Counted from the first letter of the stretch, positions 2,091 to 22,977 are shown. The stretch: DNA of 26,069 nt from Phycisphaerae bacterium (GCA_041483855.1 JBGPGM010000001.1:1-26069); one strand, 5' to 3'. Made by a program: numbers and translations. Notes: a model not told the origin generated them from the letters alone.

Positions 2091-2169
2091 GCGCCGGATC
2101 GGGTTCGCAGCGGTCGCGTGAGTTTCCTTGACGGACGTTCGGCCCACGCCGACCGTGCCGTCTTTCGTT

Positions 2170-2208: not shown

Positions 2209-2254
2209 ACCGTTGATCGGCGCCATGCCCGCGATCGCGTGCAGGAGTTTCCCG

Positions 2255-5490: not shown

Positions 5491-6530
5491 CGCAGGACCT
5501 CATCCAGAGACTCCACCAGTCTCCCTTCAGTTTCAACTTCTTCCAGGCCGTGCGCCGGCTCGAGTGCGCGGCCCCGGAGCGCCCGCGCGTCGGCTTCTCC
5601 CAGCGGCTGGCCGACGATCCCGTGCGTTTCTGCCAGGAGCCTTCGCTGGCATTCGCTCCCTCCACGATCTCCGCCGTCCGCCCGGCGGAGGGGGAGGTCG
5701 CGGCCCGGATGTTCGTCCAGTTCATGGGCATGCTGGGCCCCAACGGCCCCCTGCCCCTGCACCTGACCGAGTACATCCGCGACCGCGAGCGCAACCACGC
5801 CGACCCGACCCTCGCCCGCTTCCTGGACGTCTTCAACCACCGGATGGTCAGCCTCTTCTACCGCGCCTGGGCCGCCAGCCAGCAGGCCGTCAACTTCGAG
5901 CGTGGGCCCGCCGACCGCTTCGGCGTCTACTTCGCCAGCCTCTTCGGCTTGGGCATGGATTCCCTGCTCAAGCGCGACTCCGTCGCCGACGTGGCCAAGA
6001 TCCATTACTCCGGCCGGCTCGTCTGCCAGACGCGCCACGCCGAGGGCCTGCGCAGCATCATCCAGGACTACTTCGGCATCCCCACCGACATCCGCGAGTT
6101 CGTCGGTCAGTGGCTCGACTTGCCCTACGACTCCCGGTGCCGCCTGGCCGAAGGCCGCGCCACCGGCCTGATCGGCTTCACCGCCATCGTCGGTCAGCGC
6201 GTCTGGGACTGCCAGCAGAAGTTCAGGCTCACCCTCGGACCCATGCCCTACGCCGACTATGAACGCCTGCTCCCCGGCGGCGGGAGCATCCGGCGCCTGG
6301 CCGACTGGGTCGGCGACTATATTGGCCGCGAAATGGCCTGGGACCTGCACCTGATCCTCAAGGCCGACGAGGTGCCCGCCGTGAGTCTTGGTAGACTCGG
6401 CAGGCTCGGCTGGTCCACCTGGCTCAAGGCCGACCCCGCTCGGCCCTTCGCCAGGGACGCCGACGACCTGGTCCTTAGCCCCGGCTCCATCCAGCGGGCC
6501 GCACAAGCAGCAGTAAGCAGCAAGCAGTAA
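5454..6530 (+). CDS. tssG: T6SS baseplate subunit TssG
   Basis: FNFFQAVRRLE, PSLAFAPS, GMLGPNGPLPLHLTE, FLDVFNHRMVSLFYRAW and RFGVYFASLFGLG. Overlaps the tssF end as usual; exact start codon uncertain. Confidence 0.95.
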   Translation: MAGESGSASHYLTQDLIQRLHQSPFSFNFFQAVRRLECAAPERPRVGFSQRLADDPVRFCQEPSLAFAPSTISAVRPAEGEVAARMFVQFMGMLGPNGPLPLHLTEYIRDRERNHADPTLARFLDVFNHRMVSLFYRAWAASQQAVNFERGPADRFGVYFASLFGLGMDSLLKRDSVADVAKIHYSGRLVCQTRHAEGLRSIIQDYFGIPTDIREFVGQWLDLPYDSRCRLAEGRATGLIGFTAIVGQRVWDCQQKFRLTLGPMPYADYERLLPGGGSIRRLADWVGDYIGREMAWDLHLILKADEVPAVSLGRLGRLGWSTWLKADPARPFARDADDLVLSPGSIQRAAQAAVSSKQ

Positions 6531-6582: not shown

Positions 6583-9324
6583 ATGAGCGAGATCAGCCGT
6601 GTCAAACTGTTCGGCAAACTCAACAGCCTCGGGTACAGGTCCGTCGAGGGGGCGACGGTCTTCTGCAAGCTCCGCGGCAACCCGTACGTCGAGCTCGTGC
6701 ACGTTCTGCACCAGATCCTGCAAGTGCAGGAGTCCGACTTCCATCGCATCATCCGCCACTTCGAGTTGGACCCGGCCCGGCTCGCCGCGGACTTCACCGC
6801 GGCCCTGGACCGCCTGCCGCGCGGTGCCACGTCGATCTCCGACCTGTCGCCGCACCTGGAGGACTCGGTGGAGCGCGGCTGGGTCTACGGCTCGCTGATG
6901 TACGGCGACTCGCAGGTCCGGACCGGTCACCTCGTCCTGGGCATTCTCAAGACGCCGCCGCTCAAGCACGTCCTGCTGGGGATCTCCGGCCAGTTCGCCA
7001 AGATCAAGGAGGACGAACTGGCCGACGATTTCCACAAGATCGTCGCCGGCTCGCCGGAAGACGCTCTGCGGGCCACCGACGGCTCGATGGTTGGCGGCGG
7101 TGCCGGGGCCGCCCCCGGCGAGGCCAGCGGCGCCATGGCCCCCGCCCAGATGGGCAAGCAGGAGGCGCTGGGCAAGTACACGGTGGACCTGACGGACAAG
7201 GCCCGCAAGGGCGAGATCGACCCCATCGTTGGCCGCGACGAGGAGATCCGCCAGGCCGTTGACATCCTCATGCGCCGCCGCCAGAACAACCCCATCCTCA
7301 CCGGCGAGGCGGGCGTGGGCAAGACGGCCGTGGTCGAGGGCTTTGCCCTGCGCCTGGTCGCCGGCGACGTGCCCCCGGCCCTCAAGGACGTCGCTCTCAA
7401 GACCCTCGATCTGGGCTTGCTCCAGGCCGGCGCCAGCATGAAGGGCGAGTTCGAGAATCGCTTGCGCCAGGTCATCGAGGAGGTCCAGGCCTCCCCCAAG
7501 CCCATCATCCTCTTCATAGACGAGGCCCACCAGCTCATCGGCGCCGGCGGCGCCGCCGGCCAGGGCGATGCCGCCAACCTCCTCAAGCCCGCGCTGGCCC
7601 GCGGCACCCTGCGGACCATCGCCGCCACCACCGCCGCCGAATACCGCAAGTACTTCGAGAAGGACCCGGCCCTGACCCGCCGCTTCCAGGTCATCAAGAT
7701 CGACGAGCCCAGCGAGGCCAAGGCCCTGCTGATGATGCGCGGCATGGCCAGCACGCTCGAAAAGCACCATCGCGTGCAGATCCTGGACGAGGGCCTCGAG
7801 GCCGCGGTCAAACTCTCCCACCGCTACATCCCCGCGCGCCAACTGCCCGACAAGGCCGTCAGCCTGATCGACACCGCCTGCGCCCGCGTTGCCATCGGCC
7901 AGCACGCCGTCCCCGCCGAGGTGGACGACTGCCGCCGGCTCATCCAGGCCTTGCAGACGGAACTGGAGATCATCGACCGCGAGCAGGCCGTCGGCGTGGA
8001 CCACAACGCACGCCGGACCGAGACGATCGCCAGGCTTGACACCGAGCGCGCCCGCCTCAAGGACCTCGAACAGCACTGGGGCGACGAGAAGGAACTGGTC
8101 GCCAAGATCCTGGACATCCGCGCCAAGCTCCGCGGCGCGATCTCCCCGGTAGAGGGCACCGGCAGCAAGACCGAGGCCGCGGCCAAGGGTGAGGCCCCCC
8201 CGCCCGCCAAGATCGTGGAGCTGTCCGAGTCCCAGCGGGCGGCGTGCCTGGCGGAACTCAAGACGCTCCAGGGAAAGCTGACCCAGATGCAGGGCGACCG
8301 CCCGCTCATCCTCCCCAGCGTGGACGCCAGCGCGGTCTCCTCGGTCGTGGCGGACTGGACGGGCATCCCGGTGGGCCGGATGGTCAAGAACGAGGTCGAG
8401 TCGGTGCTGCAGCTGGCCGACACGCTCGAGAAGCGGATCATCGGCCAGCGTCACGCCCTGGACGCCATCGCCAAGCGCATCCGCACCAGCCGCGCAGGCC
8501 TGGACAACCCCGGCAAGCCCATCGGCGTGTTCATGTTCGCCGGCACGAGCGGCACGGGCAAGACGGAGACCGCCCTGGCCCTGGCCGAAACGCTCTACGG
8601 CGGCGAGCACAACGTCATCACCATCAACATGTCCGAATACCAGGAGGCGCACAAGGTCGCCACGCTCATGGGCTCGCCGCCGGGCTACGTCGGCTACGGC
8701 GATGGCGGCGTACTGACCGAGGCGGTGCGGCGCCGCCCCTACTCGGTCGTCCTGCTCGACGAGGTGGAGAAGGCCCACCCCGACGTGCACGAGATCTTCT
8801 TCCAGGTCTTCGACAAGGGGTTCATGAAGGACTCCGAAGGGCGCGACATCAACTTCAAGAACACGATCATCCTCCTGACCACCAACGCCGGGTCGGACCT
8901 GATCATGAACATGTGCAAGGACCCCGACCTCATGCCCGACCCGGACGGGATCGCCAAGGCCCTGCGCGAGCCCCTTCTCAAGATCTTCCCCGCCGCGCTG
9001 CTGGGCCGACTGGTCGTCATCCCGTTCTACCCCCTCAGCGACGACATGCTCAAGAACATCATCCGGCTCCAGCTGGGGCGGATCCAGAGGCGGGTCAAGC
9101 AGAACCAGAAGGTGCCCTTCACCTACGACGATGAGGTGGTCAAGCTGATCCTGAGCCGATGTACCGAGCGGGAGAGCGGCGGGCGCATGGTGGACGCCAT
9201 CCTCACGCACACGCTCCTGCCGGCCATCAGCACCGAGTACCTCAACCGCCTGCTCCAGGGCGGCCGGATCAACCGGGTCCACATCAGCGTCCACGACAGC
9301 GACTTCGCCTACGCCTTCGACTGA
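6583..9324 (+). CDS. clpV: T6SS AAA+ ATPase ClpV/TssH
   Basis: ClpV-type N-terminus (KLFGKLN...CKLRGNPYVELVH). Walker A GEAGVGKT and GTSGTGKT, Walker B LFIDEAH and LLDEVEKAH. C-terminal ESGGRMVDAILTHTLLP. Confidence 0.97.
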   Translation: MSEISRVKLFGKLNSLGYRSVEGATVFCKLRGNPYVELVHVLHQILQVQESDFHRIIRHFELDPARLAADFTAALDRLPRGATSISDLSPHLEDSVERGWVYGSLMYGDSQVRTGHLVLGILKTPPLKHVLLGISGQFAKIKEDELADDFHKIVAGSPEDALRATDGSMVGGGAGAAPGEASGAMAPAQMGKQEALGKYTVDLTDKARKGEIDPIVGRDEEIRQAVDILMRRRQNNPILTGEAGVGKTAVVEGFALRLVAGDVPPALKDVALKTLDLGLLQAGASMKGEFENRLRQVIEEVQASPKPIILFIDEAHQLIGAGGAAGQGDAANLLKPALARGTLRTIAATTAAEYRKYFEKDPALTRRFQVIKIDEPSEAKALLMMRGMASTLEKHHRVQILDEGLEAAVKLSHRYIPARQLPDKAVSLIDTACARVAIGQHAVPAEVDDCRRLIQALQTELEIIDREQAVGVDHNARRTETIARLDTERARLKDLEQHWGDEKELVAKILDIRAKLRGAISPVEGTGSKTEAAAKGEAPPPAKIVELSESQRAACLAELKTLQGKLTQMQGDRPLILPSVDASAVSSVVADWTGIPVGRMVKNEVESVLQLADTLEKRIIGQRHALDAIAKRIRTSRAGLDNPGKPIGVFMFAGTSGTGKTETALALAETLYGGEHNVITINMSEYQEAHKVATLMGSPPGYVGYGDGGVLTEAVRRRPYSVVLLDEVEKAHPDVHEIFFQVFDKGFMKDSEGRDINFKNTIILLTTNAGSDLIMNMCKDPDLMPDPDGIAKALREPLLKIFPAALLGRLVVIPFYPLSDDMLKNIIRLQLGRIQRRVKQNQKVPFTYDDEVVKLILSRCTERESGGRMVDAILTHTLLPAISTEYLNRLLQGGRINRVHISVHDSDFAYAFD

Positions 9325-9345
9325 TCGCGGGCCGGGCGTGCCGCC

Positions 9346-9373
9346 CCGCCCGGGCCCGGGACGGCCCGGGCGG
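9346..9373. terminator. Perfect 11-bp GC stem-loop after clpV (no U-tract; terminator or RNA-stability hairpin)
   Basis: ccgcccgggcc (9346-9356), loop cgggac, ggcccgggcgg (9363-9373). No poly-T follows directly, so intrinsic termination is uncertain. Confidence 0.4.
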
Positions 9374-9428
9374 CGCCGGGCGTGCTCCCCCGCCGCCGCT
9401 GCGCCCGCCGGGCGTTTCTGTCGCTTTC

Positions 9429-9437
9429 TGGTATAGT
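9429..9437 (+). promoter_or_regulatory. Extended -10 promoter candidate upstream of vgrG (TG-G-TATAGT)
   Basis: tggtatagt at 9429-9437, 27 bp before the vgrG ATG, with SD-like GGGAGAG at 9452-9458. An AT-rich patch in otherwise very GC-rich DNA. Confidence 0.55.
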
Positions 9438-9464
9438 GATCGGGCACCGCCGGGAGAGTCGCCA

Positions 9465-11570
9465 ATGCCCAGGACCCAGGAACACCGCGCTATCGCCATC
9501 GCGACGCCTCTCGACGACGACGTGCTCCTGCTGCGGAGCATGACCGCCCACGAGCAGCTCAGCCGCCTCTTCACGATCGAACTGGACCTGCTCAGCGAGG
9601 ACCACGAGATCAAGTTCGACGACCTGCTCGGCCAGAACTGCACCGTCCGGGTCCAGCAGCAGGGCGGCGGCACGCGCTTCTTCAACGGCTTCATCAGCCG
9701 CTTCGTCCAGACCACCAAGGGCGGCGGCATGGCCCTCTACCGCGCCACGCTCGTCCCCTGGCTGTGGATGCTGACCCGCAACGCCGACTGCCGCATCTTC
9801 CAGGAGATGACCGTCCCCGACATCATCAAGCAGGTCTTCCGCGACCACGGATTCTCCGACTTCGACGACACGCTGCAGGAGACCTACCGCAAGTGGGTCT
9901 ACTGCGTGCAGTACCGCGAGACGGACTTCAACTTCGTCAGCCGCCTGATGGAACAGGAGGGGATCTACTACTACTTTCGGCACGAGGACGGCAAGCACGT
10001 GATGGTGCTGTGCGACTCCTCCAGCAAGCACAAGGCCGCGCCCGGCTATGACAAGATTATCTACCGGCAGCCGGACAAGGTCCTCACCGACCGCGAGTTC
10101 ATCCACGACTGGTCCCACGAGCAGCAGGTCCGCACCGGCACCTACGTCCACCGCGACTTCAACTTCACCACCCCCAAGCAGAGCCTGGAGGCCAAGTCCA
10201 AGATCGACCGCAAGCACGCCGCGGCCTCCTTCGAGGTCTACGACTACCCGGGCGAGTACGACGTGGTCGCCGACGGCGAGAAAGCCGCCAAGGTCCGCAT
10301 CGAGGAGTTGCACACACAGTTCATCCAGGTGCGCGGCGAATCCGACTCGCGGGGTATCTCGGTTGGCTCCACCTTCCGGCTGGATCGGTACCCGCGCGCC
10401 GACCAGTGCGAGGTCGATTGGCTCGTGACGTCCACGGTCTGCCGGGCCCGCTCGGACGAGTTCGAGTCGCACGCCGCGGTGGGCGACTCGGCCCCGCGCT
10501 TCCTCTGTTCGTTCACCGTAATGGACAACAAGGAACAGTTCCGCCCCGCCCGCATCACACCCAAGCCCGTGATCTACGGCCCCCAGACCGCCTTTGTGGT
10601 CGGCAAGTCCGGCGAGGAGATCTGGACCGACGAGCACAGCCGCGTCAAGGTGCAGTTCCACTGGGACCGCGACGGCGAGGCCAACGAGAAGTCCTCGTGT
10701 TGGATCCGGGTCTCGCAGGCCTGGGCGGGCAAGAAGTGGGGGGCGATCTTCATCCCGAGGATCGGACACGAGGTGATCGTCGAGTTCCTCGAGGGCGACC
10801 CGGACCGGCCGATCATCACCGGCCGAGTCTACAACGCCGACACCAAGCCCCCCTACGACCTGCCCGCCCACGCGACGATGTCCACCCTCAAGTCGCTTAC
10901 GAGCAAGGGCGGCGGCGGTTTCAACGAGTTCCGCTTCGAGGACAAGAAGGGCGAGGAGCAGGTCTTCCTGCACGGCGAGAGGAACCTGGACATCCGCGTC
11001 AAGGCCGACCGCTTCGAGAACATCGGGCACGACCGCCACCTGGTCGTCGAGAACAAGAAGTTCGAGCACGTCAAGGTGGACCGGCACGAGAAGGTGGACA
11101 ACGACCACGTCGAGGTGATCGGCAACGACCGCAACCTCCAGGTCAAGGGCAAGGAAGCGATCGAGATCTCGGGCAGCCATTCCAACACCGTCGGCGGCGA
11201 CGTGATCGAGATCTTCAAGGCCAAGCACCACGAGGCGACAACCGCCGACTACTACCTCGTGGCGGACAACGTGGCCATCGAGGGCAAGACCAACATCACC
11301 CTGTACGTCGGCGACTCCTACATCGCCATCAACGCCGACGGCATCAAGATCGCCACGACCGGCAAGATCGTGCTCCAGTCCTCGGACGACACGTCGATCA
11401 AGTCCGACATGAACTTCAAGACCGAGTCCGGCATGGAGACCTCGGTGAAGGCCGGGACGGACCTGAAGCTCGAGGGCGGCGTCACCGCGGAGATGAAGTC
11501 CCCCAACACCACCGTCAAGGCGGACGCGACGCTCACGCTTAAGGGCAGCGCCTCCGTGATGATCAACTGA
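9465..11570 (+). CDS. vgrG: T6SS spike protein VgrG/TssI (gp27-gp5 core plus long beta-helix; no fused toxin domain)
   Basis: Start moved to ATG 9465. Motifs YCVQYRETDFNFVSRLMEQEGIYYYF, EIWTDEHSRVKVQFHWDR, CWIRVSQAWAG, IPRIGHEVIVEFLEGDPDRPIITGRVYN and NEFRFEDKKGEEQVFLHGERN. Ends in a repetitive beta-strand needle (...KGSASVMIN). Confidence 0.97.
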   Translation: MPRTQEHRAIAIATPLDDDVLLLRSMTAHEQLSRLFTIELDLLSEDHEIKFDDLLGQNCTVRVQQQGGGTRFFNGFISRFVQTTKGGGMALYRATLVPWLWMLTRNADCRIFQEMTVPDIIKQVFRDHGFSDFDDTLQETYRKWVYCVQYRETDFNFVSRLMEQEGIYYYFRHEDGKHVMVLCDSSSKHKAAPGYDKIIYRQPDKVLTDREFIHDWSHEQQVRTGTYVHRDFNFTTPKQSLEAKSKIDRKHAAASFEVYDYPGEYDVVADGEKAAKVRIEELHTQFIQVRGESDSRGISVGSTFRLDRYPRADQCEVDWLVTSTVCRARSDEFESHAAVGDSAPRFLCSFTVMDNKEQFRPARITPKPVIYGPQTAFVVGKSGEEIWTDEHSRVKVQFHWDRDGEANEKSSCWIRVSQAWAGKKWGAIFIPRIGHEVIVEFLEGDPDRPIITGRVYNADTKPPYDLPAHATMSTLKSLTSKGGGGFNEFRFEDKKGEEQVFLHGERNLDIRVKADRFENIGHDRHLVVENKKFEHVKVDRHEKVDNDHVEVIGNDRNLQVKGKEAIEISGSHSNTVGGDVIEIFKAKHHEATTADYYLVADNVAIEGKTNITLYVGDSYIAINADGIKIATTGKIVLQSSDDTSIKSDMNFKTESGMETSVKAGTDLKLEGGVTAEMKSPNTTVKADATLTLKGSASVMIN

Positions 11571-11590
11571 CCGTCGAGGATCCGCGACCC

Positions 11591-11980
11591 ATGGAGAAGA
11601 AGCCCGGAACAGCCCTGACCGCCGTCGCCCCCGCCGCGGTCACCGATGCGCTGGACGCCGACTCGGCCGACCCCGGCGAGGTGGCCGAGGTCAAGGCCGA
11701 GCAGCGCAAGAAGCAATCGGGCAAGTACGGCTCCAAGCAGGTCCCCGCCTACAAGCCGCCGGAGGACAAGGAAAAGAAGACGACGTGGATCGAGATCGAA
11801 CTGGTAGACCGCGACGGCAACCCGATCCCGAGCGAGCCCTACCGCATCGAGGACCCCGAGGGCCGCATCGTGGACGGAACGCTCGACGAGAAGGGATTCG
11901 CCCACCGGGACTGGATCGTCCCCGGCACCTGCAAGATCAGTTTCCCGAGGCTCGACCAGGACGCCTGGGCCAAGGCCTGA
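11591..11980 (+). CDS. Small vgrG-linked protein with C-terminal transthyretin/prealbumin-like beta domain (putative adaptor)
   Basis: SD GAGGA at 11576-11580; 20 bp after the vgrG stop; strong C/G-ending codons. Ala/Pro/Lys linker, then WIEIELVDRDGNPIPSEPYRIEDPEGRIVDGTLDEKG..GTCKISFP, the pattern of TTR-like/carboxypeptidase-regulatory-like domains. Confidence 0.75.
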   Translation: MEKKPGTALTAVAPAAVTDALDADSADPGEVAEVKAEQRKKQSGKYGSKQVPAYKPPEDKEKKTTWIEIELVDRDGNPIPSEPYRIEDPEGRIVDGTLDEKGFAHRDWIVPGTCKISFPRLDQDAWAKA

Positions 11981-12103
11981 TCCGGCCCGCCCGCGTCCGG
12001 GGACGCCCGACGATCGCGCCGCACCGCATCGGCGAACCCCGACCCTCTGCCGCGACGGGCTCGCTCCCCGGCGAGCCAGCCACCCTCAACGGACGCCCAA
12101 CCC

Positions 12104-12847
12104 ATGGCCGAGACCAAGAAGCCCAAGGACGACGTCAACAACAGCCCCGTCAACACGGGCATCGAGAACGACCTCGCCGACGAGAACGGGGAGTTCTACT
12201 ACTCCGCGCACGTGGTCAGCCAGGGCGAGTGCCTCATCCGGGTGTCCGCCGAGAACGGCTACTGGTGGGAGACTCTGTGGAACCACGCGGACAACGCCGA
12301 GCTGAAGAAGGGCCGGAAGAACCCCAACGTCCTGCTCCCGGAGGACCGCATCCGCGTGCCCAAGGTCCGGCTCAAGACCGAGGACGGCGCCACGGAACAG
12401 AAGCACAAGTTCAAGTGCAAGATCGAGCCGTCGATCCTGCGGCTGCGCGTCAGCGTCTTCGATGAGCCGCTCGCCAACAAGCCGTACAAGCTCGAGGTCG
12501 AGGGCAAACTGTACACCGGTACCACCAACGGCGACGGCCAGATCGAGCAGAAGGTCCCCTGCCGCGCCCGCGCCGGCCACCTGGTCGTCGGCGAGCCCCC
12601 CGAGGAGCGAGAGTACGACCTGCAGATCGGCGACCTGGACCCGCTCGACACGATCGCAGGCATCAAGGAGCGCCTCAACAACCTCGGCTACGCGGCCGGG
12701 CCCATCTGCGATTGGGACTATTTCAACAACTGGCCGGTCCCCGCCTTCCGCAAGGCCCTCCGCAAGTTCCAGCTCAACCACGACCTCAAGATCACCGGCA
12801 TCGTCGACAAGATGACCAAGGACGCCCTCCTCAAGACCGGCATCTGA
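12104..12847 (+). CDS. LysM-like + TTR-like + peptidoglycan-binding (PG_binding_1-like) protein, no signal peptide
   Basis: LysM-like HVVSQGECLIRVSAENG...LWNHADNAELKKGRKNPNVLLPEDRIRVP (about 12209-12361). Beta domain LRLRV..DEPLANKPYKLEVEG...GTTNGDG (about 12434-12625). PGBD-like IKERLNNLGY...ALRKFQLNHDLKITGIVDKMT (about 12638-12835). Confidence 0.8.
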   Translation: MAETKKPKDDVNNSPVNTGIENDLADENGEFYYSAHVVSQGECLIRVSAENGYWWETLWNHADNAELKKGRKNPNVLLPEDRIRVPKVRLKTEDGATEQKHKFKCKIEPSILRLRVSVFDEPLANKPYKLEVEGKLYTGTTNGDGQIEQKVPCRARAGHLVVGEPPEEREYDLQIGDLDPLDTIAGIKERLNNLGYAAGPICDWDYFNNWPVPAFRKALRKFQLNHDLKITGIVDKMTKDALLKTGI

Positions 12848-12890
12848 GCCGGTGCCCGTCCCCTCCCCTCCCTGTCCGCGGAGCCCCTGT

Positions 12891-15752
12891 ATGCTCGCAC
12901 GCGTTGCCAAGAACGACTACGACAACGAGAACGGCAAGACGTTCACTCCCCTGGACCGGCAGAGCTACCTGCCGATCGTGGATGCGCACTGCCACGTCTT
13001 CGGCCAGAGCCTCTCCGTCGGCGACAAGATCCGGGACGACTCCGACGCGACCCACGTGACGTTCATCAAGGGCGGCTCGGGCGGCTCGGTCAAGAAGCTC
13101 TTCAAGCCCACTGTCCTGATCAAGAAGCCCCCGACCCAGGTCCAGAGCCTCGTCGGCGACGCCAAGTCCCTGGCGGACAAGGCCCCGCCCGGCCTCATGG
13201 ACAAGGCCAAGGGCGCCGCGTCTTCTTTCCTCTCCTCCGCCGGCAAGGCGATGCCCAGCGTGAAGAAGGAGGACCTCGAGAAGGCGCAGAGCGTCGCCAA
13301 GGAGTTCGCCGACCGTCAGATCGGCGAGGTCCTCCAGAAGGTATACGCCCGCGGCGTCATCGAACTCCCACCGTCGGAGTGGCCGCCGCAGGCCACCACC
13401 ACGCTGGTCGGCGACCGCGTGTTCTTCGTCGTGATGCTCTCGGAACGCGCCAAGATCCATTCCTACGGGATCGGCTCCGAGAAGGCGGACCTCACCGAGA
13501 TCGCCTGGCTGGTCGGCCACATGGAGGCCGGGTTCGCCAAGTTCATCAAGTACTTCTTCGGTGATGACGGCGAGAACGCCGGCATCGTCCTCAACGGCGT
13601 GCCCAAGGAGGGAGGGACCGCCGTCGTCCCCCTCCTCCTGGACATGGGCTACACGCCGCTGGACGTCCCGCTGCCGCTGTTGGGCACGCTGGCCGCGTGG
13701 CTCGTCGGCCTGCCCAAGCCCGCGCCGGACCCGGACGGCTACTACAAGGCCGGCAAGGAGTTCCTCTGGTTCGACCGCAAGGGGCTCCAGTACACCTACG
13801 AGACGCTGGCCGACGTCGCCAGTCAGTACCCCTACCAGATCTGGCCGATGGTCCCCTTTGACCCGCGCCGGCCCGACGCGCTGAGCCACGTGAAGAAGGC
13901 TGTCAACGAGTTCGCCTTCCCCGGCGTCAAGCTCTACTCCCGCTGCGGCTGGGCACCCTACAACAACGCCGACGTCCACGGCCCCACGCACGGGCCCAAG
14001 CTCGATCAGCGCCTCGACGCCTTCTATGCCTACGCCGTTCAGGAAGACCTGCCCGTTCTCAACCACACCAGCCCGACGGGTTTCCCGCCCAACGCGGCCC
14101 TGGCCCTGCCCAAGGGCTATGACGGAGCGGATATGTACCACAGCCGCCTGCTCTACCCCGGGCGCGTCGGGATCGGACCGCTGCCGCTGGGGGCTCTGGA
14201 GGGGATCCTCAAGGACGTCGGGCAAGGAATGCTCGATGTCGCCGGGCTCCCGCCTCCCGAGGAACTGCTCAAGCAGGCCAAGGCCACGGGCTCGAAGATG
14301 CTCCAGGACGTGGGCGACCTGGCCAACCAGGCCAAGGATTTGAGCCAGGAGCACTTCGACTCCCTCGTGAGCGCGCTGGACAAGGCCCGGGCCAAGGGGC
14401 CGGCCGAGATCGAGCGACTCACCAGCCTCGCCGATCCCTCCAAACTCTCCGTGCAGGCCGTCCGCGACCAGCTCTCCGAGTACATTGCTCCCGAAACGCT
14501 CAGCAAGATCGCCGACAAGTTCAACCCCAAGCAGTTTTTCGGCCTCGCGTCCTGCATCAAGGGCCCGGACTTCCATCCCGTCAAGAACATGATCGACCCG
14601 CAGAAGCAGAAGGAGAACGCCGCCATCAACGCCGAGCAGCGCCGCAGCCCGCTCAAGGTCCTCTTCGACGCCTGCTGCAAGATCCTGGCCTTGATGTCGT
14701 GCTACGACGCGGCCAAGTACTGCCACTACGTCCAGCACACCGTCTCGCCCTACGCCTGGGAACCCGTCCTCAAGAAGTACCCCAAGCTCCGCCTCGACCT
14801 GGCCCACTGCGGGTCCGAGAAGAGCGTGATCACCCACTATGGCCTGGACAAGGACGAGCACGAAATCGGCAAGAATCCTACCGCCGCGGCCAAGAAGACG
14901 TGCGACGTCCTCAAGGATCAGATCAAGGACCTGCACGCGAACCCGTTCGTCGCCACCGGCGCACGCTTCAAGGACTACCTTTTCGCCCAGTGCGCCAAGG
15001 AACGCGGCATCATCGCCCTCTTCCAATACTTCGTTACCAGCGAGGCCACCATCGACCCCGCCAAGAAGGCCGCGGATAAGGTCACCGAGATGCTCATGAA
15101 GGTCCTGCCCGCGGTCTTCGCCAAGGTGCTCAAGCAGTTCACTCTCCAGCAGATCTACGATGGCGTGCGGGTCCAGGTGCCGGAGGTCCTCAAGGAAGAG
15201 CTGTGGCAGCAGTGGCTGGAGGACTGGGCCGACAAGTTCCCCAAGGACTGGATCACCAAGATCAAGGAACTGTGCGGCAAGTACGACAACGTCTATACGG
15301 ACATCTCCTACCTGACGGGCACCAGCAACGATGTCCACAAGCTACTGCTCGCCAAGATCGCCGACGATGCTTGCCCCGACACGCATCGGCGCGAGGGGTC
15401 CGACGCCGGCGTGGAAGACGAGAGCACCGACGGCTCCACCAAGGAGACCATCTTCGCCGAGCGACTCATGATCGGCACCGACTGGTACATGACCGCCATG
15501 GACAATGTCGGCCCCGACACTTTCTGGGAGCGCACCAAGTCCGTCGTCAACACCGACCACCCGCTCTGGGAGCGCTGGGCCAGCCGCAACTGCATCAACT
15601 TCATGAATCTCGGCAAGCGGATGGACGCGATGGAGAAGTGGTACAAGACCCGCAACATCCCTGACTCCAGCCGTCCCTCCTGGTGGCCAGCCGTCAAGCA
15701 CTACTACAAGGTCAAGGAGGAGAAGGGCGCCGCGGCCGCGGCCAAGGTTTGA
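12891..15752 (+). CDS. Very large amidohydrolase-superfamily (Amidohydro_2-like) protein with multiple insertions; putative T6SS cargo effector
   Basis: Start moved to ATG 12891 (GGAG upstream). Motifs in canonical order: IVDAHCH (HxH at 12987-12995), PFDPRR, GVKLY (13923), PVLNH (H at 14064), KYPKLRLDLAHCG (H at 14805), NVYTDISY (15288) and LMIGTDWY (D at 15480). 953 aa. The effector role is inferred from position only. Confidence 0.8.
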   Translation: MLARVAKNDYDNENGKTFTPLDRQSYLPIVDAHCHVFGQSLSVGDKIRDDSDATHVTFIKGGSGGSVKKLFKPTVLIKKPPTQVQSLVGDAKSLADKAPPGLMDKAKGAASSFLSSAGKAMPSVKKEDLEKAQSVAKEFADRQIGEVLQKVYARGVIELPPSEWPPQATTTLVGDRVFFVVMLSERAKIHSYGIGSEKADLTEIAWLVGHMEAGFAKFIKYFFGDDGENAGIVLNGVPKEGGTAVVPLLLDMGYTPLDVPLPLLGTLAAWLVGLPKPAPDPDGYYKAGKEFLWFDRKGLQYTYETLADVASQYPYQIWPMVPFDPRRPDALSHVKKAVNEFAFPGVKLYSRCGWAPYNNADVHGPTHGPKLDQRLDAFYAYAVQEDLPVLNHTSPTGFPPNAALALPKGYDGADMYHSRLLYPGRVGIGPLPLGALEGILKDVGQGMLDVAGLPPPEELLKQAKATGSKMLQDVGDLANQAKDLSQEHFDSLVSALDKARAKGPAEIERLTSLADPSKLSVQAVRDQLSEYIAPETLSKIADKFNPKQFFGLASCIKGPDFHPVKNMIDPQKQKENAAINAEQRRSPLKVLFDACCKILALMSCYDAAKYCHYVQHTVSPYAWEPVLKKYPKLRLDLAHCGSEKSVITHYGLDKDEHEIGKNPTAAAKKTCDVLKDQIKDLHANPFVATGARFKDYLFAQCAKERGIIALFQYFVTSEATIDPAKKAADKVTEMLMKVLPAVFAKVLKQFTLQQIYDGVRVQVPEVLKEELWQQWLEDWADKFPKDWITKIKELCGKYDNVYTDISYLTGTSNDVHKLLLAKIADDACPDTHRREGSDAGVEDESTDGSTKETIFAERLMIGTDWYMTAMDNVGPDTFWERTKSVVNTDHPLWERWASRNCINFMNLGKRMDAMEKWYKTRNIPDSSRPSWWPAVKHYYKVKEEKGAAAAAKV

Positions 15753-15755
15753 TCG

Positions 15756-15828
15756 CTCGGGCGAGCCCCGCCGCCGAGCAGACGCGGGCATCCGCCGACC
15801 CCCATGGCGGACGCCTTCCGGGTACCAT
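15756..15828 (+). promoter_or_regulatory. Two hairpins plus a TAnnnT -10 candidate separating the T6SS block from downstream genes
   Basis: gctcgg/ccgagc stem (15755-15779), tccgcc/ggcgga stem (15791-15811) and TACCAT at 15823-15828. Confidence 0.3.
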
Positions 15829-15874
15829 TGTCTGTTGCCCGGCATCCCCGCGATCGGTCCAGCGGAGCCGCCCC

Positions 15875-16636
15875 ATGCCACCCTCACCCGTCCCCATCGC
15901 CGCCCCACGACCTGCCACCAGGCTCTACGACGGCGACGCCGACCTGCTCGTGCGCTCCGAGCAGTTCCCCGACCGTATCAGCCTGCTCAGTGCCGGGCCC
16001 GCCGGCGCGGGCGCCGCCTCCAGCACGCCCGGCGCCGAACGAATCCGCATCCTCTGGGGCCAGGACATGCTGCGCGACATCCTCGATGGGCGCTACCGGT
16101 CCGTCGTGTGCGGCGTTAACGACGCCGACAACTCCCACGGCGTTATCGCCCAACTCGTCAGCCTTGTTCCCACCAGCCAGTGGTCCGCGCGGGCGGTCAC
16201 CTCGTTCGCCAGGATGTTCCAGGAATCGGTGGCCGTGCACGCCGCGCACGACCGCGAGCCGTATGTCCTGAAATACGATCTCGATAGCCTGCTGATCCTG
16301 GCGCTGCTGCGCCCCAAGGGGCGGGACCATTTCACGATCGAGGATCTGTCGCGCGGTTTCGCCACGATCAGCCGGATGCTGGCGGACCGGCGCGAGCGGC
16401 TCCCCGTCGCGAGCGTTTCCTTCCTCAACGCCCGCGCCAACCGCCTTCTCGCCTCCGAGCCCGGCAAGCAGGCCGCCGAGCCTTCCTTCGAATCCGTCCT
16501 CCGCACCATGTACGACGCCGGGTTCCGCGGCGACGTCTACGCGGCCCCTGCCATGTGGCAGTTCGCCCACGTCGGTGTCTTCCCCTCCTACCCCTTCCCC
16601 GAGGGACTGGAACGGATGCGCAGCGGCAGTTCCTGA
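15875..16636 (+). CDS. Hypothetical protein, possible divergent macrodomain (DarG/TARG1-like) fold
   Basis: Start at ATG 15875 (GGAG 7 nt upstream). RIRILWGQDML...VVCGVNDADNSHGVIAQL and ...LPVASVSFLNARANRL follow the strand/loop pattern of macrodomains. The CDS is well supported; the fold is tentative. Confidence 0.6.
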   Translation: MPPSPVPIAAPRPATRLYDGDADLLVRSEQFPDRISLLSAGPAGAGAASSTPGAERIRILWGQDMLRDILDGRYRSVVCGVNDADNSHGVIAQLVSLVPTSQWSARAVTSFARMFQESVAVHAAHDREPYVLKYDLDSLLILALLRPKGRDHFTIEDLSRGFATISRMLADRRERLPVASVSFLNARANRLLASEPGKQAAEPSFESVLRTMYDAGFRGDVYAAPAMWQFAHVGVFPSYPFPEGLERMRSGSS

Positions 16637-16643
16637 ACGCCCG

Positions 16644-17201
16644 GTGCGCCCTGGATCGCGACCCTCTCGGAGCCGTCCCACGATCAACGCCCAACGACTC
16701 ATCGATCGCCTGAACTACTTCGGCCCAGCGCTGGGCCGCGTGGTCGCGTGCGTGACGCCCGAGGAGGCGCGGTTCAAACCGCCCACCGGGGCCTGGTCGA
16801 TCCTCGAGATCATCAACCACCTGGCCGACGAGGAGGTCGACGACTTCCGCCGTCGGCTGGAGTTGATCCTGCGCGACCCGGCGCTGCCATGGCCGCCGAT
16901 CGATCCCGAGGGCGTCGCCGCCGCGCGTCAGTACAACCAGCAGGACCTGGACGAGTCGGTGGACCGCTTCATGCGCCAGCGGGCCGAGTCGGTGCGCTGG
17001 CTGCGCTCGCTCGGCCGAGTCGATTGGGCCGCGGAGCACGCGCACCCGACGGCGGGCCCGATCTCGACGGGCGATCTGCTGGCGTCCTGGGCCGCCCACG
17101 ACGCGCTGCACCTGCGCCAGATCGCCAAGCGCCTGCACGAACTGGCGGGGCGCGACGCGCCGGGATTCCAGACCGCGTACGCGGGCCAGTGGGGGCCTTG
17201 A
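16644..17201 (+). CDS. DinB/DUF664-superfamily four-helix metalloprotein (DinB_2-like; not DNA polymerase IV)
   Basis: WSILEIINHLADEE and AAHDALHLRQI give the His triad. Start uncertain: GTG 16644 or ATC 16683. Confidence 0.85.
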   Translation: MRPGSRPSRSRPTINAQRLIDRLNYFGPALGRVVACVTPEEARFKPPTGAWSILEIINHLADEEVDDFRRRLELILRDPALPWPPIDPEGVAAARQYNQQDLDESVDRFMRQRAESVRWLRSLGRVDWAAEHAHPTAGPISTGDLLASWAAHDALHLRQIAKRLHELAGRDAPGFQTAYAGQWGP

Positions 17202-17340
17202 GGGCGCGGGGCGGCGCGCACCCGGCCGGCGCATCGACCGGACCAAGCGACGACGCACGCGGAAGAGGAGCCTCCCGCGTGCGTCACCACGGATTTCGAT
17301 GTCGAACGCCCCAGCCCGCCCGGTCCGTGTCTACCCCCGA

Positions 17341-17955
17341 TCAGTACTTGCGCAAGACGCTGCGGACGATGCCCTGGATGCGGCAGTCCTTCACGTAGAT
17401 CGGCTTGAACTCGGGGTTGGCGGGTTGCAGCCGGACACGGTCCGCCTCGCGGAAGAACGTCTTGAGCGTCGTCTCGCCGTTGGGCAGCAGGGCGACGACC
17501 CGGTCGCCGTTGGCGGCCACGTCCGTGCGCTCCACGAGGATGTAGTCGCCGTCAAGGATCCCCTCGTCGCGCATCGATTCGCCGGTCACGCGCAGAGCGA
17601 AGATGGCGCCGGGGCGACCGGGGCGCGGGCCGACGATGTCGAGCAGGTCCAGTTCGTCGTGGTCCTCGACCTTCTCGATCGGGTAGCCCGCCGCGATCTT
17701 GCCCACCAGCGGGAAGTGCATCGGCCGCGACTCGTCCGGCACGGCCACGCCGTCAGCAATCGACAAAGAGCGCGCCTTGTTGGGCTCGCGCACGAGCGCG
17801 CCCTTCTTGATGAGCGCCTCGACGTGCTCGAAGACGGTCACCTTGCTCACGCCGATCTCGTCGGCGAGTTCCTGCATGGTTGGCGAGTAGCCACGCCGCA
17901 CGCGGCAATCCCGGATAAGCCGCAGGATCTTCAACTGCTTGGGGGTCAGGTTCAT
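17341..17955 (-). CDS. lexA: SOS repressor LexA
   Basis: Winged HTH (LTPKQLKIL...GYSPTMQELAD), cleavage site GKIAAG-YP, catalytic Ser (GESM) and Lys (TTLK). SD GGAGG 9 nt upstream. Confidence 0.96.
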   Translation of the reverse strand: MNLTPKQLKILRLIRDCRVRRGYSPTMQELADEIGVSKVTVFEHVEALIKKGALVREPNKARSLSIADGVAVPDESRPMHFPLVGKIAAGYPIEKVEDHDELDLLDIVGPRPGRPGAIFALRVTGESMRDEGILDGDYILVERTDVAANGDRVVALLPNGETTLKTFFREADRVRLQPANPEFKPIYVKDCRIQGIVRSVLRKY

Positions 17956-18544
17956 CGTGTGTTCCCTCCGTGTGGGTAATGGTTCGTGCCGGGGTCATGG
18001 CCCCTCGAATCTCGTCCGTCCTGTCAGGGCCGGCGCTGCGCATCGCTCGCGCCAGGCCCAGCGTCCGTCGCAGTGCACCCGCCTGGTCCGCTTGCAGACG
18101 CTCCGCCGCGAGCAGGGCGCCGGCACGCGCGGCTAACTGCGAGACCTCAAGGGTGTCAACCGTCGACCCCCCTGTAAACCCTCCGTTCACCCTGATTTTG
18201 TTTGCATCCGTACTTGTCGCGGACACGGCCGATGTTTGGACCGCACGAAGAGCCCCCGCCGAAATCTCGGCTCGGTCGAAGCGCCCGCCCATCGTCCGGC
18301 TGTCGGCGACCCGTTCATAACCCAAATCATCCGTGGTCCCCTGACCGCCTCGCCGCATGTCCCTCTGACCGGTGCCGGGCCCTTCCGACGATGCCCAGCC
18401 TGCCGTCCCATTCTTATCCTGACCGCCGGACGCAGAAGTCGGCGCACCGGCCGCTCCGCGAGCGATCTTGCCATCCGGCATCACGTCGTAGGTCGTCACG
18501 AAGTCACCGCCCGGACCGAGTTTGATGAGCGTTTGGGTCAGCAT
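17753..18544 (-). CDS. Hypothetical protein upstream of and overlapping lexA (MLTQTLIKLGPGGDFVTTYDV...)
   Basis: ATG 18544 has GGAGG 11 nt upstream. First ~27 codons and a later helical segment (LAARAGALLAAERLQADQAGALRRTLGLARAMR) are GC3-rich. The frame has no stop before lexA and overlaps it by 203 bp, so the true 3' end is doubtful. Confidence 0.4.
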   Translation of the reverse strand: MLTQTLIKLGPGGDFVTTYDVMPDGKIARGAAGAPTSASGGQDKNGTAGWASSEGPGTGQRDMRRGGQGTTDDLGYERVADSRTMGGRFDRAEISAGALRAVQTSAVSATSTDANKIRVNGGFTGGSTVDTLEVSQLAARAGALLAAERLQADQAGALRRTLGLARAMRSAGPDRTDEIRGAMTPARTITHTEGTHDEPDPQAVEDPAAYPGLPRAAWLLANHAGTRRRDRREQGDRLRARRGAHQEGRARARAQQGALFVDC

Positions 18545-18564
18545 GGGTCGTGGCGCCTCCCGGG

Positions 18565-18582
18565 TGTTCCTAAGGCTGTACG
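18565..18582. repeat. Direct repeat copy 1, TGTTC(C)TAAGGCT(G/A)TACG
   Basis: tgttcctaaggctgtacg, immediately 5' (minus strand) of the SD of ORF 18544. Second copy at 18830-18846. Confidence 0.55.
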
Positions 18583-18750
18583 AACAGCCTCGGACGCGCC
18601 GCACACGCGGCCATCCTTGGTCCTCGGGTTCCACCCCTTGTGGTAGCATCCTGTCGGTCCACGACAGGTTGAGCCTGCGTCGGCTTGGGGTTGTTGATCG
18701 ACCAGCACTTCGGTAGTCCCGCACTTTCAGTGGATCCATCTGTTTGGATT

Positions 18751-18779
18751 AAGATAGCCGATCATCGTCCACACGGCAA
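18751..18779 (-). promoter_or_regulatory. Sigma70-type promoter candidate TTGCCG-N17-TATCTT
   Basis: Minus strand: -35 TTGCCG at 18779-18774, 17-bp spacer, -10 TATCTT at 18756-18751. Lies in an AT-rich patch and points toward ORF 18544 and lexA. Confidence 0.55.
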
Positions 18780-18829
18780 GTCAATGAACTCTTTTTTTCA
18801 ACAGAATTTTGTCAGACCTCGATCTCCCC

Positions 18830-18846
18830 TGTTCTAAGGCTATACG
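18830..18846. repeat. Direct repeat copy 2, TGTTCTAAGGCTATACG
   Basis: Differs from copy 1 by a 1-nt indel and one substitution. Confidence 0.55.
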
Positions 18847-18862
18847 GTAGGCGGGCGGGCGC

Positions 18863-18900
18863 TGTTCGTGCGAATCCTCAGCCCGTCGTTCGATCGAGCA
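18863..18900. promoter_or_regulatory. Two imperfect TGTTC-N4-GAACA-like palindromes (candidate LexA boxes)
   Basis: TGTTC-gtgc-GAATC (18863-18876) and CGTTC-gatc-GAGCA (18887-18900), each matching 8 of 10 consensus positions. Confidence 0.35.
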
Positions 18901-18924
18901 TCGGTCATATCTCATTACACCACA

Positions 18925-20142
18925 TCAAGTTACGCGCGAGAGCCGCGTCCCGTGCCGCTGTATTCGCCGCTTGATCTCCAGCACCGTCACCTCCGCTCTC
19001 ACCGATGCCGGCTCGCTCCCGACCTCGCGTGCCAGCTCGTCCATCGTGCGCGGCTCGTCCAACGCGGCCAGGATGGCCCGTTGGCTGGGCGTCAGGGATC
19101 CGTCCCGAACTGCGCGATCCCCCTCGGCCACCTGGTCCGGCGTCGCCGCCGGTCCCCTGTCGGCGGCGAAGAGGCTCTCGGGCTGGCGCGACGGGTCGGT
19201 TGTCACCGCCGCGTGCGTGCCGTCGAAATGGTGGCGCGCGGGCGATTCCAGCGTATCGATGATGTCGGCCGGGTGAGTCACCAGCAAGGCCCCACCCCTC
19301 TTGATCAGGTCCAGCGAGCCCTCGGCGCTGGGCGAATCCACGCGGGCGGGGAGAGCGAAGACCTCGCGCCCGTGATCCTCCGCGGCCAGGCGCGCTGTGA
19401 TCAGCGCCCCCGACCGTCGCCCCGCCTCGACGACCAGAACGCCCAGGCACAGACCGGAGATGATGCGGTTGCGGGCGGGGAAGTTCTCGGCCACGGGCGC
19501 CGTCCGCAGGGGCAGTTCGGAAATCACCGCGCCGGCGCCGGCGCAGATCTGCGCGAATAGCGGCTCGTTCTCGGGCGGGTAGCTCATGGCCAGACCGCAG
19601 CCGAGGACGGCGACGGTCCGCCCCTGGGCCCGCAGCGCCCTGCGGTGCGCGCCCGTGTCGATGCCGCGGGCGCCGCCTGAGACCACGCACAGGCCCGCCT
19701 GGGCCAGGTGGAGGCCGAACCGCTCGGCCTGCTCTCGCCCGTAGTGGGAACAGGATCGCGAGCCGACAACGGCGATCGGGTACCGATCCGCCCCCGGGGC
19801 GTCGAGCGCCCCCTTTGTGTACAGCACCGGCGGCGGGTCCGGGATCTGCGCCAGCAGCGCCGGATACTGCGGCTGACCCAAACCGATGAGCGCTACCCCC
19901 AGCGAGTCCGCTAGGGCAATCTCGGCGTCGGCCAGCGCCTCGGAGGCCTGGATCCCGTCGCGGATCTCCTGGGCCTTGTCGCGCCCAATGCCGCGCAGTT
20001 CCTTCAACTGCGCGCCGGGTGCTTCCAGCACGGCCCTGGCCGATCCGAACGCGGTCACCGCGCGCCCGATGAGTACCGGCCCGAGACCGGGCGTGAGCGT
20101 GAGCCGCAACAGATCACGTGTACTGGGATCGATGTTGGGCAT
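18925..20142 (-). CDS. dprA: DNA-processing protein DprA (Smf)
   Basis: LTLTPGLGP, YPALLAQIPDPPPVLY, IAVVGSR, VVSGGARGIDTGAH, FPARNRIISGL and VVEAGRRSGALITA, plus a C-terminal winged helix. Start moved to ATG 20142 because the longer ORF would overlap the divergent deaminase. Confidence 0.96.
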   Translation of the reverse strand: MPNIDPSTRDLLRLTLTPGLGPVLIGRAVTAFGSARAVLEAPGAQLKELRGIGRDKAQEIRDGIQASEALADAEIALADSLGVALIGLGQPQYPALLAQIPDPPPVLYTKGALDAPGADRYPIAVVGSRSCSHYGREQAERFGLHLAQAGLCVVSGGARGIDTGAHRRALRAQGRTVAVLGCGLAMSYPPENEPLFAQICAGAGAVISELPLRTAPVAENFPARNRIISGLCLGVLVVEAGRRSGALITARLAAEDHGREVFALPARVDSPSAEGSLDLIKRGGALLVTHPADIIDTLESPARHHFDGTHAAVTTDPSRQPESLFAADRGPAATPDQVAEGDRAVRDGSLTPSQRAILAALDEPRTMDELAREVGSEPASVRAEVTVLEIKRRIQRHGTRLSRVT

Positions 20143-20150
20143 CTGGTAGG

Positions 20151-20159
20151 AGTCTATCA
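20151..20159 (-). promoter_or_regulatory. Extended -10 (TG-A-TAGACT) 8 nt before the dprA ATG; probable leaderless transcript
   Basis: Minus strand gtgatagactcctaccagATG; no SD present. Confidence 0.45.
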
Positions 20160-20198
20160 CGGTTCGGGTGGACGGGCGAGGCGTGGCATAACGCTCGC

Positions 20199-20669
20199 AT
20201 GGATCAAGAGGCAATGGACCGGCTGGCCCTTGAGGCCGCGTTCGGCCAGGCGCTCAAGTCCGAGCTGGAGGGGGGGATTCCGATCGGATCAGCGTTGGTG
20301 AGCCCGCACGGGCTGGTGGTGGCGCTCGGGCACAACCAGCGGGTGCAGTCCGGCGACCCGACCGCCCACGCCGAAATGGTGTGCATCCGCAACGCGGGCC
20401 GGCGGCGCGACTGGCATACGCTCATCCTGGCCTCGACGCTCAGCCCGTGCGCCATGTGCTCAGGAACGGCGGTGCTGCACCGGATTCGGCGCGTGGTGAT
20501 CGGCGAGAGCCGGACGTTCCAGGGGCGCGAGGATTGGTTGCACGAGTCGGGGGCCGACGTGCGGGTGCTGGATGACCCGCGCTGCGTGCAAGTGATGGAG
20601 CGATTCATCCGGGCGCACCCGGACCTGTGGGACGAGGACATCGGCGCGCCGCCCGTGGACCGAGGTTGA
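20199..20669 (+). CDS. Zinc-dependent nucleoside/cytosine deaminase (Fcy1-like)
   Basis: HAE and TLSPCAMC zinc motifs, EGGIPIGS, RVVIGESRTF and WDEDIG resemble fungal-type cytosine deaminases. Start at ATG 20199. Confidence 0.88.
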   Translation: MDQEAMDRLALEAAFGQALKSELEGGIPIGSALVSPHGLVVALGHNQRVQSGDPTAHAEMVCIRNAGRRRDWHTLILASTLSPCAMCSGTAVLHRIRRVVIGESRTFQGREDWLHESGADVRVLDDPRCVQVMERFIRAHPDLWDEDIGAPPVDRG

Positions 20670-20739
20670 TCAGGCCGGCGGGACGGCGCCGAAAGTGTGG
20701 ATGGCCGGGCGGAACGCGCCCGATGAACTGGACGTGCTC

Positions 20740-22197: not shown

Positions 22198-22235
22198 GTC
22201 GGCCGCCGCGCTCCCTTCAATCCTCCCACCGCCGG

Positions 22236-22451: not shown

Positions 22452-22454
22452 CAG

Positions 22455-22874: not shown

Positions 22875-22977
22875 GGGGTAGATCGGGGCCCCGGCGGCGC
22901 CCCCCGGCTGCGCCGCCGAGTTCATGATAGAGGATGAGCCCTATAGGCGGGCCGTGTCAAGGGTGCGAGTCCATCGC

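Follow-up and report, generated by a model that had tools for sequence, protein, structure and literature searches.

A VgrG-linked candidate type VI secretion cargo module with a putative Amidohydro_2-type hydrolase in a Phycisphaerae genome

What does a type VI secretion system (T6SS) spike carry when the genes directly behind vgrG encode a small protein, a wall-binding-type protein and a very large enzyme? The question is raised by a 26,069-nt stretch of DNA from a Phycisphaerae bacterium (GCA_041483855.1, JBGPGM010000001.1:1-26069). This whole stretch is called the window here, and positions are counted along it. It is one contig of a 59 %-complete metagenome-assembled genome (MAG) of the Phycisphaerales, and the relatives found in a genome scan are Phycisphaerales or other Planctomycetota. 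In the window, vgrG is followed by genes for proteins of 129, 247 and 953 amino acids (aa), all four on the + strand, as an earlier note on this DNA had said (Table 1). That note proposed a new T6SS cargo module in which a detached adaptor with a transthyretin-like (TTR-like) domain and a partner with LysM and PG_binding_1 domains load a giant amidohydrolase on the spike.

Our analysis makes it probable that the four genes are a VgrG-linked T6SS cargo module. The 129-aa protein would act as a tip and the 247-aa protein as a cargo-specific connector; together they would mount the 953-aa hydrolase on the spike, from which it would be fired into a neighbouring cell.

A detached tip, a connector and a putative hydrolase

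Tip. The window VgrG (TIGR03361, 668 bits; Phage_GPD, E-value (E) 2e-106; also Gp5_trimer_C and Phage_base_V) is the sole VgrG found in the 59 %-complete MAG. It stops just past the gp5-like beta-helix and a partial DUF2345 domain and has no C-terminal extension. The 129-aa gene begins 20 nt past the vgrG stop. In three relatives the 129-aa sequence is, in frame, the C-terminus of VgrG itself (G024, locus L043, 834 aa; G022, L044, 792 aa; G305, L048, 760 aa), and there it begins straight after the last beta-helix strands. On the strength of these fusions we read the 129-aa protein as a detached VgrG tip, in keeping with the detached TTR-like adaptor of the earlier note; judged by its sequence, it is a split-off VgrG C-terminal extension. 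Homologues also lie directly 3' of vgrG in Phycisphaerae (L002, L006, L024-L026) and, among Hydrogenedentota, in the T6SS cluster of G061.

The 129-aa protein has a linker, the conserved motif ADPGE...GKYGS and, at the C-terminus (residues about 64-129), a predicted TTR-like beta-sandwich; in its family the motif lies in the N-terminal part, and the C-terminal module spans about 65 residues. The C-terminal TTR domain of VgrG1 from enteroaggregative Escherichia coli (EAEC) binds the phospholipase Tle1 (PDB 6sjl, 6sk0, 6ski). The family profile matches this domain weakly (6sjl residues 783-832; E 0.21 when built from 5 sequences, 0.07 from 17) and also gives weak matches to CnaB/SdrD/Bap-type sandwiches.

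Connector. The 247-aa protein has a LysM-like domain (residues about 33-86), a TTR-like sandwich (about 108-175) and a PG_binding_1 domain (about 183-245; Pfam E 2.3e-7). In an AlphaFold2 model built on 19 homologues (mean confidence, pLDDT, 77), the LysM-like domain is alpha/beta, the sandwich has seven strands and the C-terminal domain is helical. The PDB fold that this model matches best is 3qva, a 5-hydroxyisourate hydrolase of the transthyretin family, through the middle domain (probability 0.99, E 8.7e-3). Other matches are the PG_binding_1 domains of SleB/CtpB (6tci, 4c2c) and the LysM domain of intimin (2mpw). A TTR-like module common to the two middle proteins, another proposal of the earlier note, is moderately supported: BLASTP gave no match between the 129-aa and 247-aa proteins, and profile-profile comparison with hhalign aligned the 129-aa module with the 247-aa sandwich at E 4.5e-5 (probability 69 %, 41 columns). 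No NCBIfam model matches any of the 129-, 247- and 953-aa proteins.

The connector gene stands directly 5' of the hydrolase gene in all unfused loci (22/22). Elsewhere the two are joined, either as LysM::hydrolase (P0042/P0158, P0056) or as hydrolase::PG_binding_1 (P0008, P0052), and these fusions are Rosetta-stone evidence that connector and hydrolase act together. The connectors also diversify with their cargo. We built a tree of 27 connectors, 18 of them hydrolase-linked, leaving out near-identical duplicates (L004, L005, L007, L011, L013, L021) and loci with an unclear connector start. All 18 fall on one side of a single branch (support 79/79), and none of 500 label shuffles scored as low. 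Paralogues from a single locus part by cargo, and connectors of the same alternative effector pair together (support 100/99). Since related sequences share labels, this is clustering by cargo and not a count of independent events. Obligate pairing, fusions and tree together bear out the earlier view of the LysM/PG_binding_1 protein as the partner of the hydrolase; they support a cognate role for it, as adaptor or co-effector, in which it would bind the hydrolase and bridge it to VgrG.

Hydrolase. For the 953-aa protein, the ATG at 12891 suits the starts of homologues better than the GTG at 12852. The protein passes the Pfam Amidohydro_2 model (PF04909) narrowly, with 28.6 bits against a cut-off of 26.4, but the model is matched by 12/12 first-round family members, at best with E 1.3e-12. 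A TatD-like nuclease, to which the motifs bear some resemblance, was dropped as a candidate, since Amidohydro_2 is the only model that all members match. Of 20 sequences from two phyla, 19-20 keep each of six motifs: DxHCH, GVKLYxRCGW, NHTSPxG, LRLxxAH, NxYxD and GTDWxM. In the window protein they contain H33/H35 (12987-12995), K347, H392 (14064-14066), H639 (14805-14807), D804 and D864 (15480-15482); of these, H33/H35, H392, H639 and D864 show little or no variation across the 20 sequences. Barrels of the amidohydrolase superfamily bind their metals through HxH on strand 1, His on strand 5, His on strand 6 and Asp on strand 8. By analogy, the order of motifs fits these ligands of a metal-dependent member.

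The protein is about three times as long as usual Amidohydro_2 enzymes, with about 600 residues of insertions, and is predicted to form a (beta/alpha)8 barrel interrupted by large, mostly helical insertions. Inserts of about 300 residues in the homologues of L001 and L003 have significant apolipoprotein / ApoLp-III matches, and L006-type hydrolases have beta-rich repeat inserts. On motifs and Pfam match, we regard the 953-aa protein as a putative divalent-metal-dependent hydrolase of the Amidohydro_2 branch.

T6SS linkage, exchangeable cargo and alternative roles

Distribution. The hydrolase family is rare. A word-indexed search gave 12 hydrolase clusters; an exhaustive hidden Markov model (HMM) search gave about 58 at E <= 1e-30, almost all from Planctomycetota or Hydrogenedentota, together with a large halo of ordinary Amidohydro_2 proteins of 300-600 aa. 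Among 185,579 species genomes the family is present in 12, all of these two phyla, and among 401 Phycisphaerae genomes in 4. The earlier note had named amidohydrolase homologues found mostly away from T6SS genes as a ground for rejecting its proposal. We find the reverse: 15 of 23 distinct loci, from both phyla, have VgrG, PAAR, TssK/L/M or other T6SS genes within 10 kb, and TssF was found in 8 of 9 carrier genomes checked.

The linked loci have three arrangements. The window, L002, L006, L025 and L048 have the order vgrG-tip-(PAAR)-connector-hydrolase. G010/L024 and L026 have vgrG-tip and connector-hydrolase with a second cargo cassette between. In eight Hydrogenedentota loci, a connector-hydrolase pair converges on tssK-L-M and vgrG-tip lies on the far side of the same cluster. 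In G305 a VgrG::tip fusion, connector, hydrolase and PAAR make up a compact island.

Eight loci have no T6SS gene within 10 kb. Three lie on truncated contigs, L023 shares synteny with G010, and L001 retains the tip gene; L009 and L022 are orphan connector-hydrolase pairs, the latter in a genome with a T6SS elsewhere. L047 (G249:C1, 10027-18421) holds a distant LysM::Amidohydro_2 fusion (1109-aa frame, WP_206293260.1-like). There the fusion is followed by a ClpB/ClpV-like double AAA+ ATPase (662 aa) and then by a 1000-aa protein without Pfam matches.

Exchangeable cargo. The loading parts are more widespread than the hydrolase. In the window's family, TssF is present in 17 of 36 genomes and the hydrolase in one of 36, while the tip family is present in 8 of 24 genomes and the connector family in 7 of 24, with up to five copies per genome. 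The pair of small protein and connector stands ahead of other large proteins in G003, G009, G020 and G024. Tandem cassettes of tip, connector and large protein occur in L042 (G003:C16, 6134-13460), L045 (G009:C54, 3680-9917) and L046 (G020:C17, 2726-10050). Their large proteins are of the 700-975 aa class and belong to several unrelated families, one with Peptidase_M23. The other large proteins have no Pfam family (708/750 aa, 534 aa, 974 aa; 647 aa in L043) and may be further undescribed effector families. The second cassette of G010 lies between vgrG and the hydrolase pair (L021, G010:C49, 9388-11945; also L023, 3-1402). Its products are a TTR/PG_binding_1 protein that lacks LysM (175 aa), a protein with an HEVGH (HExxH) zinc-protease motif and no Pfam match (386 aa) and a HEAT-repeat protein that has a signal peptide (290 aa); the last two look like a periplasm-acting effector-immunity pair. 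The scaffold is generic, and the cargo is accessory and interchangeable.

Proposed mechanism. We propose that the C-terminal tip domain of VgrG was split off into a gene of its own, whose 129-aa product is made up of a flexible linker, the ADPGE...GKYGS motif and the transthyretin-like sandwich. The 247-aa connector, an adaptor or a co-secreted co-effector, would bind the hydrolase; the tip domain, free or fused, and the connector would then dock it on the VgrG trimer, and sheath contraction would fire the complex into a neighbouring cell. The payload would be a metal-dependent hydrolase of the Amidohydro_2 branch with helical inserts, apolipoprotein-like in some homologues. It may attack a cell-envelope substrate, most likely in the periplasm of the target. 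An envelope target is suggested only by the wall-binding folds of the partner, by homologues in which PG_binding_1 is fused to the enzyme, by sister cargoes of the M23 and HExxH kinds and by inserts of the lipid-binding type. A bolder version, which we put forward only tentatively and think on balance unlikely, is a new biochemical class of T6SS toxin: an amidohydrolase-superfamily barrel whose helical inserts are of the lipid-binding type, whose LysM/PG_binding_1 partner keeps it at the wall, and which hydrolyses an envelope component that the producers (Planctomycetota, Hydrogenedentota) lack or modify. Such a lack or modification would explain why no immunity protein is needed.

Evidence that weighs against a T6SS cargo module of this kind comes from several sides. 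The AlphaFold2 model of the hydrolase is modest (pLDDT 64); residues 1-300 are poor, and the unmodelled N-terminus includes strand 1. The best fold matches of the model, LigI (4d8l), ACMSD (4eri) and COG3618 (4do7), are non-significant (E 0.4-2), and single-sequence and profile searches of the PDB found no relatives of the hydrolase, only spurious coiled-coil or PII matches. The TTR assignment of the 129-aa protein depends on weak profile matches (E 0.07). L001, L009 and L022 have no T6SS structural gene in the flanks examined, and TssF was not found in the complete 7,189,892-bp genome that carries L047. No PAAR gene was found in the MAG, whose 59 % completeness leaves the absence unestablished. 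Finally, no conserved gene stands beside the hydrolase, downstream or upstream (the connector excepted), in any lineage, and the downstream neighbours vary; a missing immunity gene is unusual for an antibacterial T6SS toxin.

This lack of a conserved downstream gene leaves the hydrolase without an immunity candidate. Two genes were considered and rejected. The 253-aa gene downstream is not conserved, has no signal peptide and no Pfam match, and has a lysine share, K/(K+R), of 0.11. The other, a 112-aa gene facing the hydrolase in Hydrogenedentota, also lacks a signal peptide and apparently belongs to the tssM operon. Possible reasons for the gap are that the producers lack or modify the substrate, that immunity is encoded elsewhere, that the target is not bacterial, or that the enzyme is not a toxin.

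Alternatives. The hydrolase could be T6SS cargo with a target outside the envelope, such as a cytoplasmic metabolite or eukaryotic cells, with LysM and PG_binding_1 as mere protein-protein adaptors. The lack of an immunity gene would fit, and so would the characterised Amidohydro_2 enzymes, which use small molecules (LigI, ACMSD and lactonases are the best fold matches). A purely adaptor role for LysM also has a precedent (Wang et al., 2023; Commun Biol 6:1195, PMC10673891). However, sister cassettes carry a wall peptidase (M23), the signal-peptide HEAT protein after the HExxH effector of G010 points to the periplasm, and PG_binding_1 is fused to the enzyme itself in some homologues. We consider a target of this kind improbable.

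A slim chance is left for a role in the apparatus, as an accessory enzyme that, for example, remodels the producer's own envelope for T6SS assembly or firing. This would account for the fixed spot of the pair at the end of the Hydrogenedentota T6SS cluster, by tssM, in eight species, and for the lack of an immunity gene. Wall-remodelling helpers of T6SSs are known (TagX, MltE). An accessory enzyme is hard to square with a family in which the T6SS is frequent (17/36) but the hydrolase rare (1/36), or with a cassette slot that the hydrolase shares with other, different large proteins. It would also need to reach the producer's periplasm, but the hydrolase has neither signal peptide nor membrane anchor.

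We give equally little weight to a connector-hydrolase pair that is independent of the T6SS, released by lysis or exported in another way, with its proximity to vgrG due to co-transfer on an island. The distant fused relative next to an AAA+ ATPase, in a genome where TssF was not found, is in line with such independence, as are the orphan pairs of L009 and L022 and a composition that suggests horizontally acquired DNA (see below). But T6SS genes within 10 kb at 15 of 23 loci, in two phyla and three arrangements, are not what independence would give; moreover, the genome of orphan L022 has a T6SS elsewhere, and G305 packs VgrG::tip, connector, hydrolase and PAAR into one compact island.

Immunity proteins are normally fold-specific to one toxin family. 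It is very unlikely that the 247-aa protein is the immunity protein of the hydrolase, for although the obligate adjacency of the two genes, a connector tree that follows cargo (as in toxin-antitoxin matching) and the want of another immunity candidate would agree with that role, the same three-domain architecture pairs with an M23 peptidase, the hydrolase and at least three families without assignment, LysM or PG_binding_1 is covalently fused to the hydrolase in some homologues, the connector has no signal peptide although its wall-binding folds would work in the periplasm, its middle domain resembles the VgrG tip domain, and bridging has an experimental precedent (PMC10673891).

Gene layout, composition and neighbouring genes

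Table 1. Features of the window (positions along the 26,069-nt stretch)
Feature	Position	Strand	Basis or remark
tssC	3-1475	+	5' end cut by contig start; Pfam + NCBIfam
hcp	1590-2090	+	Pfam + NCBIfam
tagJ/impE	2171-3118	+	Pfam + NCBIfam
tssE	about 3144-3617	+	Pfam + NCBIfam
tssF	3610-5490	+	Pfam + NCBIfam
tssG	5454-6530	+	Pfam + NCBIfam
clpV	6583-9324	+	Pfam + NCBIfam
Extended -10-like string TGgTATAGT	9429-9437	+	sequence match only
vgrG spike, 702 aa	9462-11570	+	TIGR03361, Phage_GPD, Gp5_trimer_C, Phage_base_V
Detached VgrG tip gene, 129 aa	11591-11980	+	fused to VgrG in relatives
LysM / TTR-like / PG_binding_1 connector, 247 aa	12104-12847	+	Pfam, AlphaFold2 model, fold matches
Amidohydro_2-type putative effector, 953 aa	12891-15752	+	PF04909, conserved motifs
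Spacer + 253-aa gene	15753-16636 (gene 15875-16636)	+	no Pfam match; outside module

The earlier note had placed an internal extended -10 ahead of the four genes. On direct reading the string TGgTATAGT is present, about 25 nt 5' of the vgrG ATG, but a sigma-70 scan of 9200-16000, which needs a -35 element, returned zero promoters; we therefore rank the string as a mere sequence match. Two features of the encoded proteins held up. None of the four has a signal peptide or membrane helix in 19-residue Kyte-Doolittle windows, N-terminal or internal, and by this heuristic the N-terminal hydropathy maxima are <= 0.89. All four share a lysine-rich style: K/(K+R) ranges over 0.51-0.73 across the module, compared with 0.08-0.25 in the flanking DinB, DprA, SpoIID and 253-aa genes. 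The module genes are also lower in G+C content (GC; 0.64-0.67) than the flanks (0.69-0.71).

TssC and Hcp (3-2090) have the same lysine-rich, low-GC style as the module genes. TssE/F/G and the housekeeping flanks (15875-22197) are arginine-rich with GC 0.67-0.71, so that the composition is a mosaic inside one T6SS cluster. Between Planctomycetota and Hydrogenedentota, VgrG sequences share about 50 % identity. The mosaic composition and this identity across phyla suggest horizontal exchange.

The genes 3' of the module encode the 253-aa protein, DinB_2, LexA, DprA, a deaminase and SpoIID and are unrelated to it. The deaminase (20118-20669; cytidine/deoxycytidylate-type) also matches MafB19-like deaminase (E 6e-9), and an EVE-domain protein is encoded downstream of the T6SS cluster at 22191-22925 on the - strand; nothing ties either to the T6SS. 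The longest open reading frames at 2128-3108 and 22924-25926 are out-of-frame artefacts (third-position GC 0.50-0.61, isoelectric point about 12), and the real gene in the former region is tagJ.

Some relatives have further genes in or near their T6SS clusters. The Phycisphaerae loci L006 (5453-6271) and L025 (5854-6669) encode a 272-aa CHAP-domain protein between clpV and vgrG, possibly an extra wall-amidase effector or an accessory protein. The Hydrogenedentota cluster L041 (G061:C1, 246-13470) has the order tssA?-tssB-tssC-hcp-tssE-tssF-tssG-vgrG-tip-x-tssK-tssL-tssM, followed by a Big_12 gene and a 112-aa gene, both of which (also L008, 12167-13489) are kept in eight species. Between tssG and vgrG this cluster shows no clpV.

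Significance and comparison with known systems

If the proposed module is real, an Amidohydro_2 TIM barrel joins the payloads of the T6SS, and the almost unstudied T6SSs of Planctomycetota and Hydrogenedentota gain a first concrete effector candidate. One scaffold with interchangeable cargoes, split and fused forms and co-diversifying connectors offers a natural system in which to test how cargo is selected. The lack of an immunity gene raises the question of how the producer protects itself or what the real target is. Full-text literature searches turned up no report of an amidohydrolase or a TIM barrel as T6SS effector, nor any work on T6SSs in Phycisphaerae.

The module is less new than the earlier note had it. 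Its hydrolase family is undescribed as an effector, and that part of the claim stands. The claim is overstated for the loading parts, because stand-alone LysM, PG_binding_1 and VgrG C-terminal recruiting domains were described in 2023 (PMC10673891). In relatives, moreover, the same pair of small protein and connector carries other effectors, such as an M23 peptidase. The new part is the hydrolase family only; the delivery logic was published in 2023.

Wang et al. (2023) list LysM, PG_binding_1 and DUF2345 among the domains of vgrG loci. These domains occur as independent genes, as C-terminal fusions to VgrG or as N-terminal fusions to the toxin, and a stand-alone LysM protein, exemplified by Kalk_10460 of Ketobacter alkanivorans, was required for co-immunoprecipitation of VgrG and effector. 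The connector resembles those proteins in being a signal-less LysM/PG_binding_1 protein encoded between vgrG and a large effector, in having domains that also occur fused to the toxin, and in a likely specificity for the downstream toxin. It differs in uniting LysM, a TTR-like sandwich and PG_binding_1 in one protein. It is found in Planctomycetota and Hydrogenedentota, whereas the published PG_binding_1 forms are from gamma-proteobacteria only. The cargo is an Amidohydro_2 enzyme instead of a Lyz-like, NlpD or NlpC/P60 protein, no immunity gene follows the effector, and each cassette has its own detached TTR-type tip.

Like the TTR domain of EAEC VgrG1, the tip is predicted to be a small beta-sandwich that would recruit cargo at the distal end of the spike, and in three relatives it is fused to VgrG, though the similarity is weak. 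Unlike that domain, it has its own gene in the window and is repeated at the head of each cassette in relatives, and the conserved ADPGE...GKYGS motif stands ahead of it.

With the lactonase LigI, the decarboxylase ACMSD and the COG3618 lactonase, the hydrolase shares the PF04909 match and the HxH/His/His/Asp order of motifs. Unlike them it is three times longer, has no detectable sequence similarity to solved structures and is encoded in the cargo slot of a secretion system, not in a catabolic operon.

The closest parallel to the split tip is the split DUF2345 (PMC10673891). In both cases a distal domain of VgrG is either fused or encoded by an independent gene directly downstream. Here, in contrast to DUF2345, the detached piece is a linker with a TTR-like domain, and VgrG keeps a partial DUF2345.

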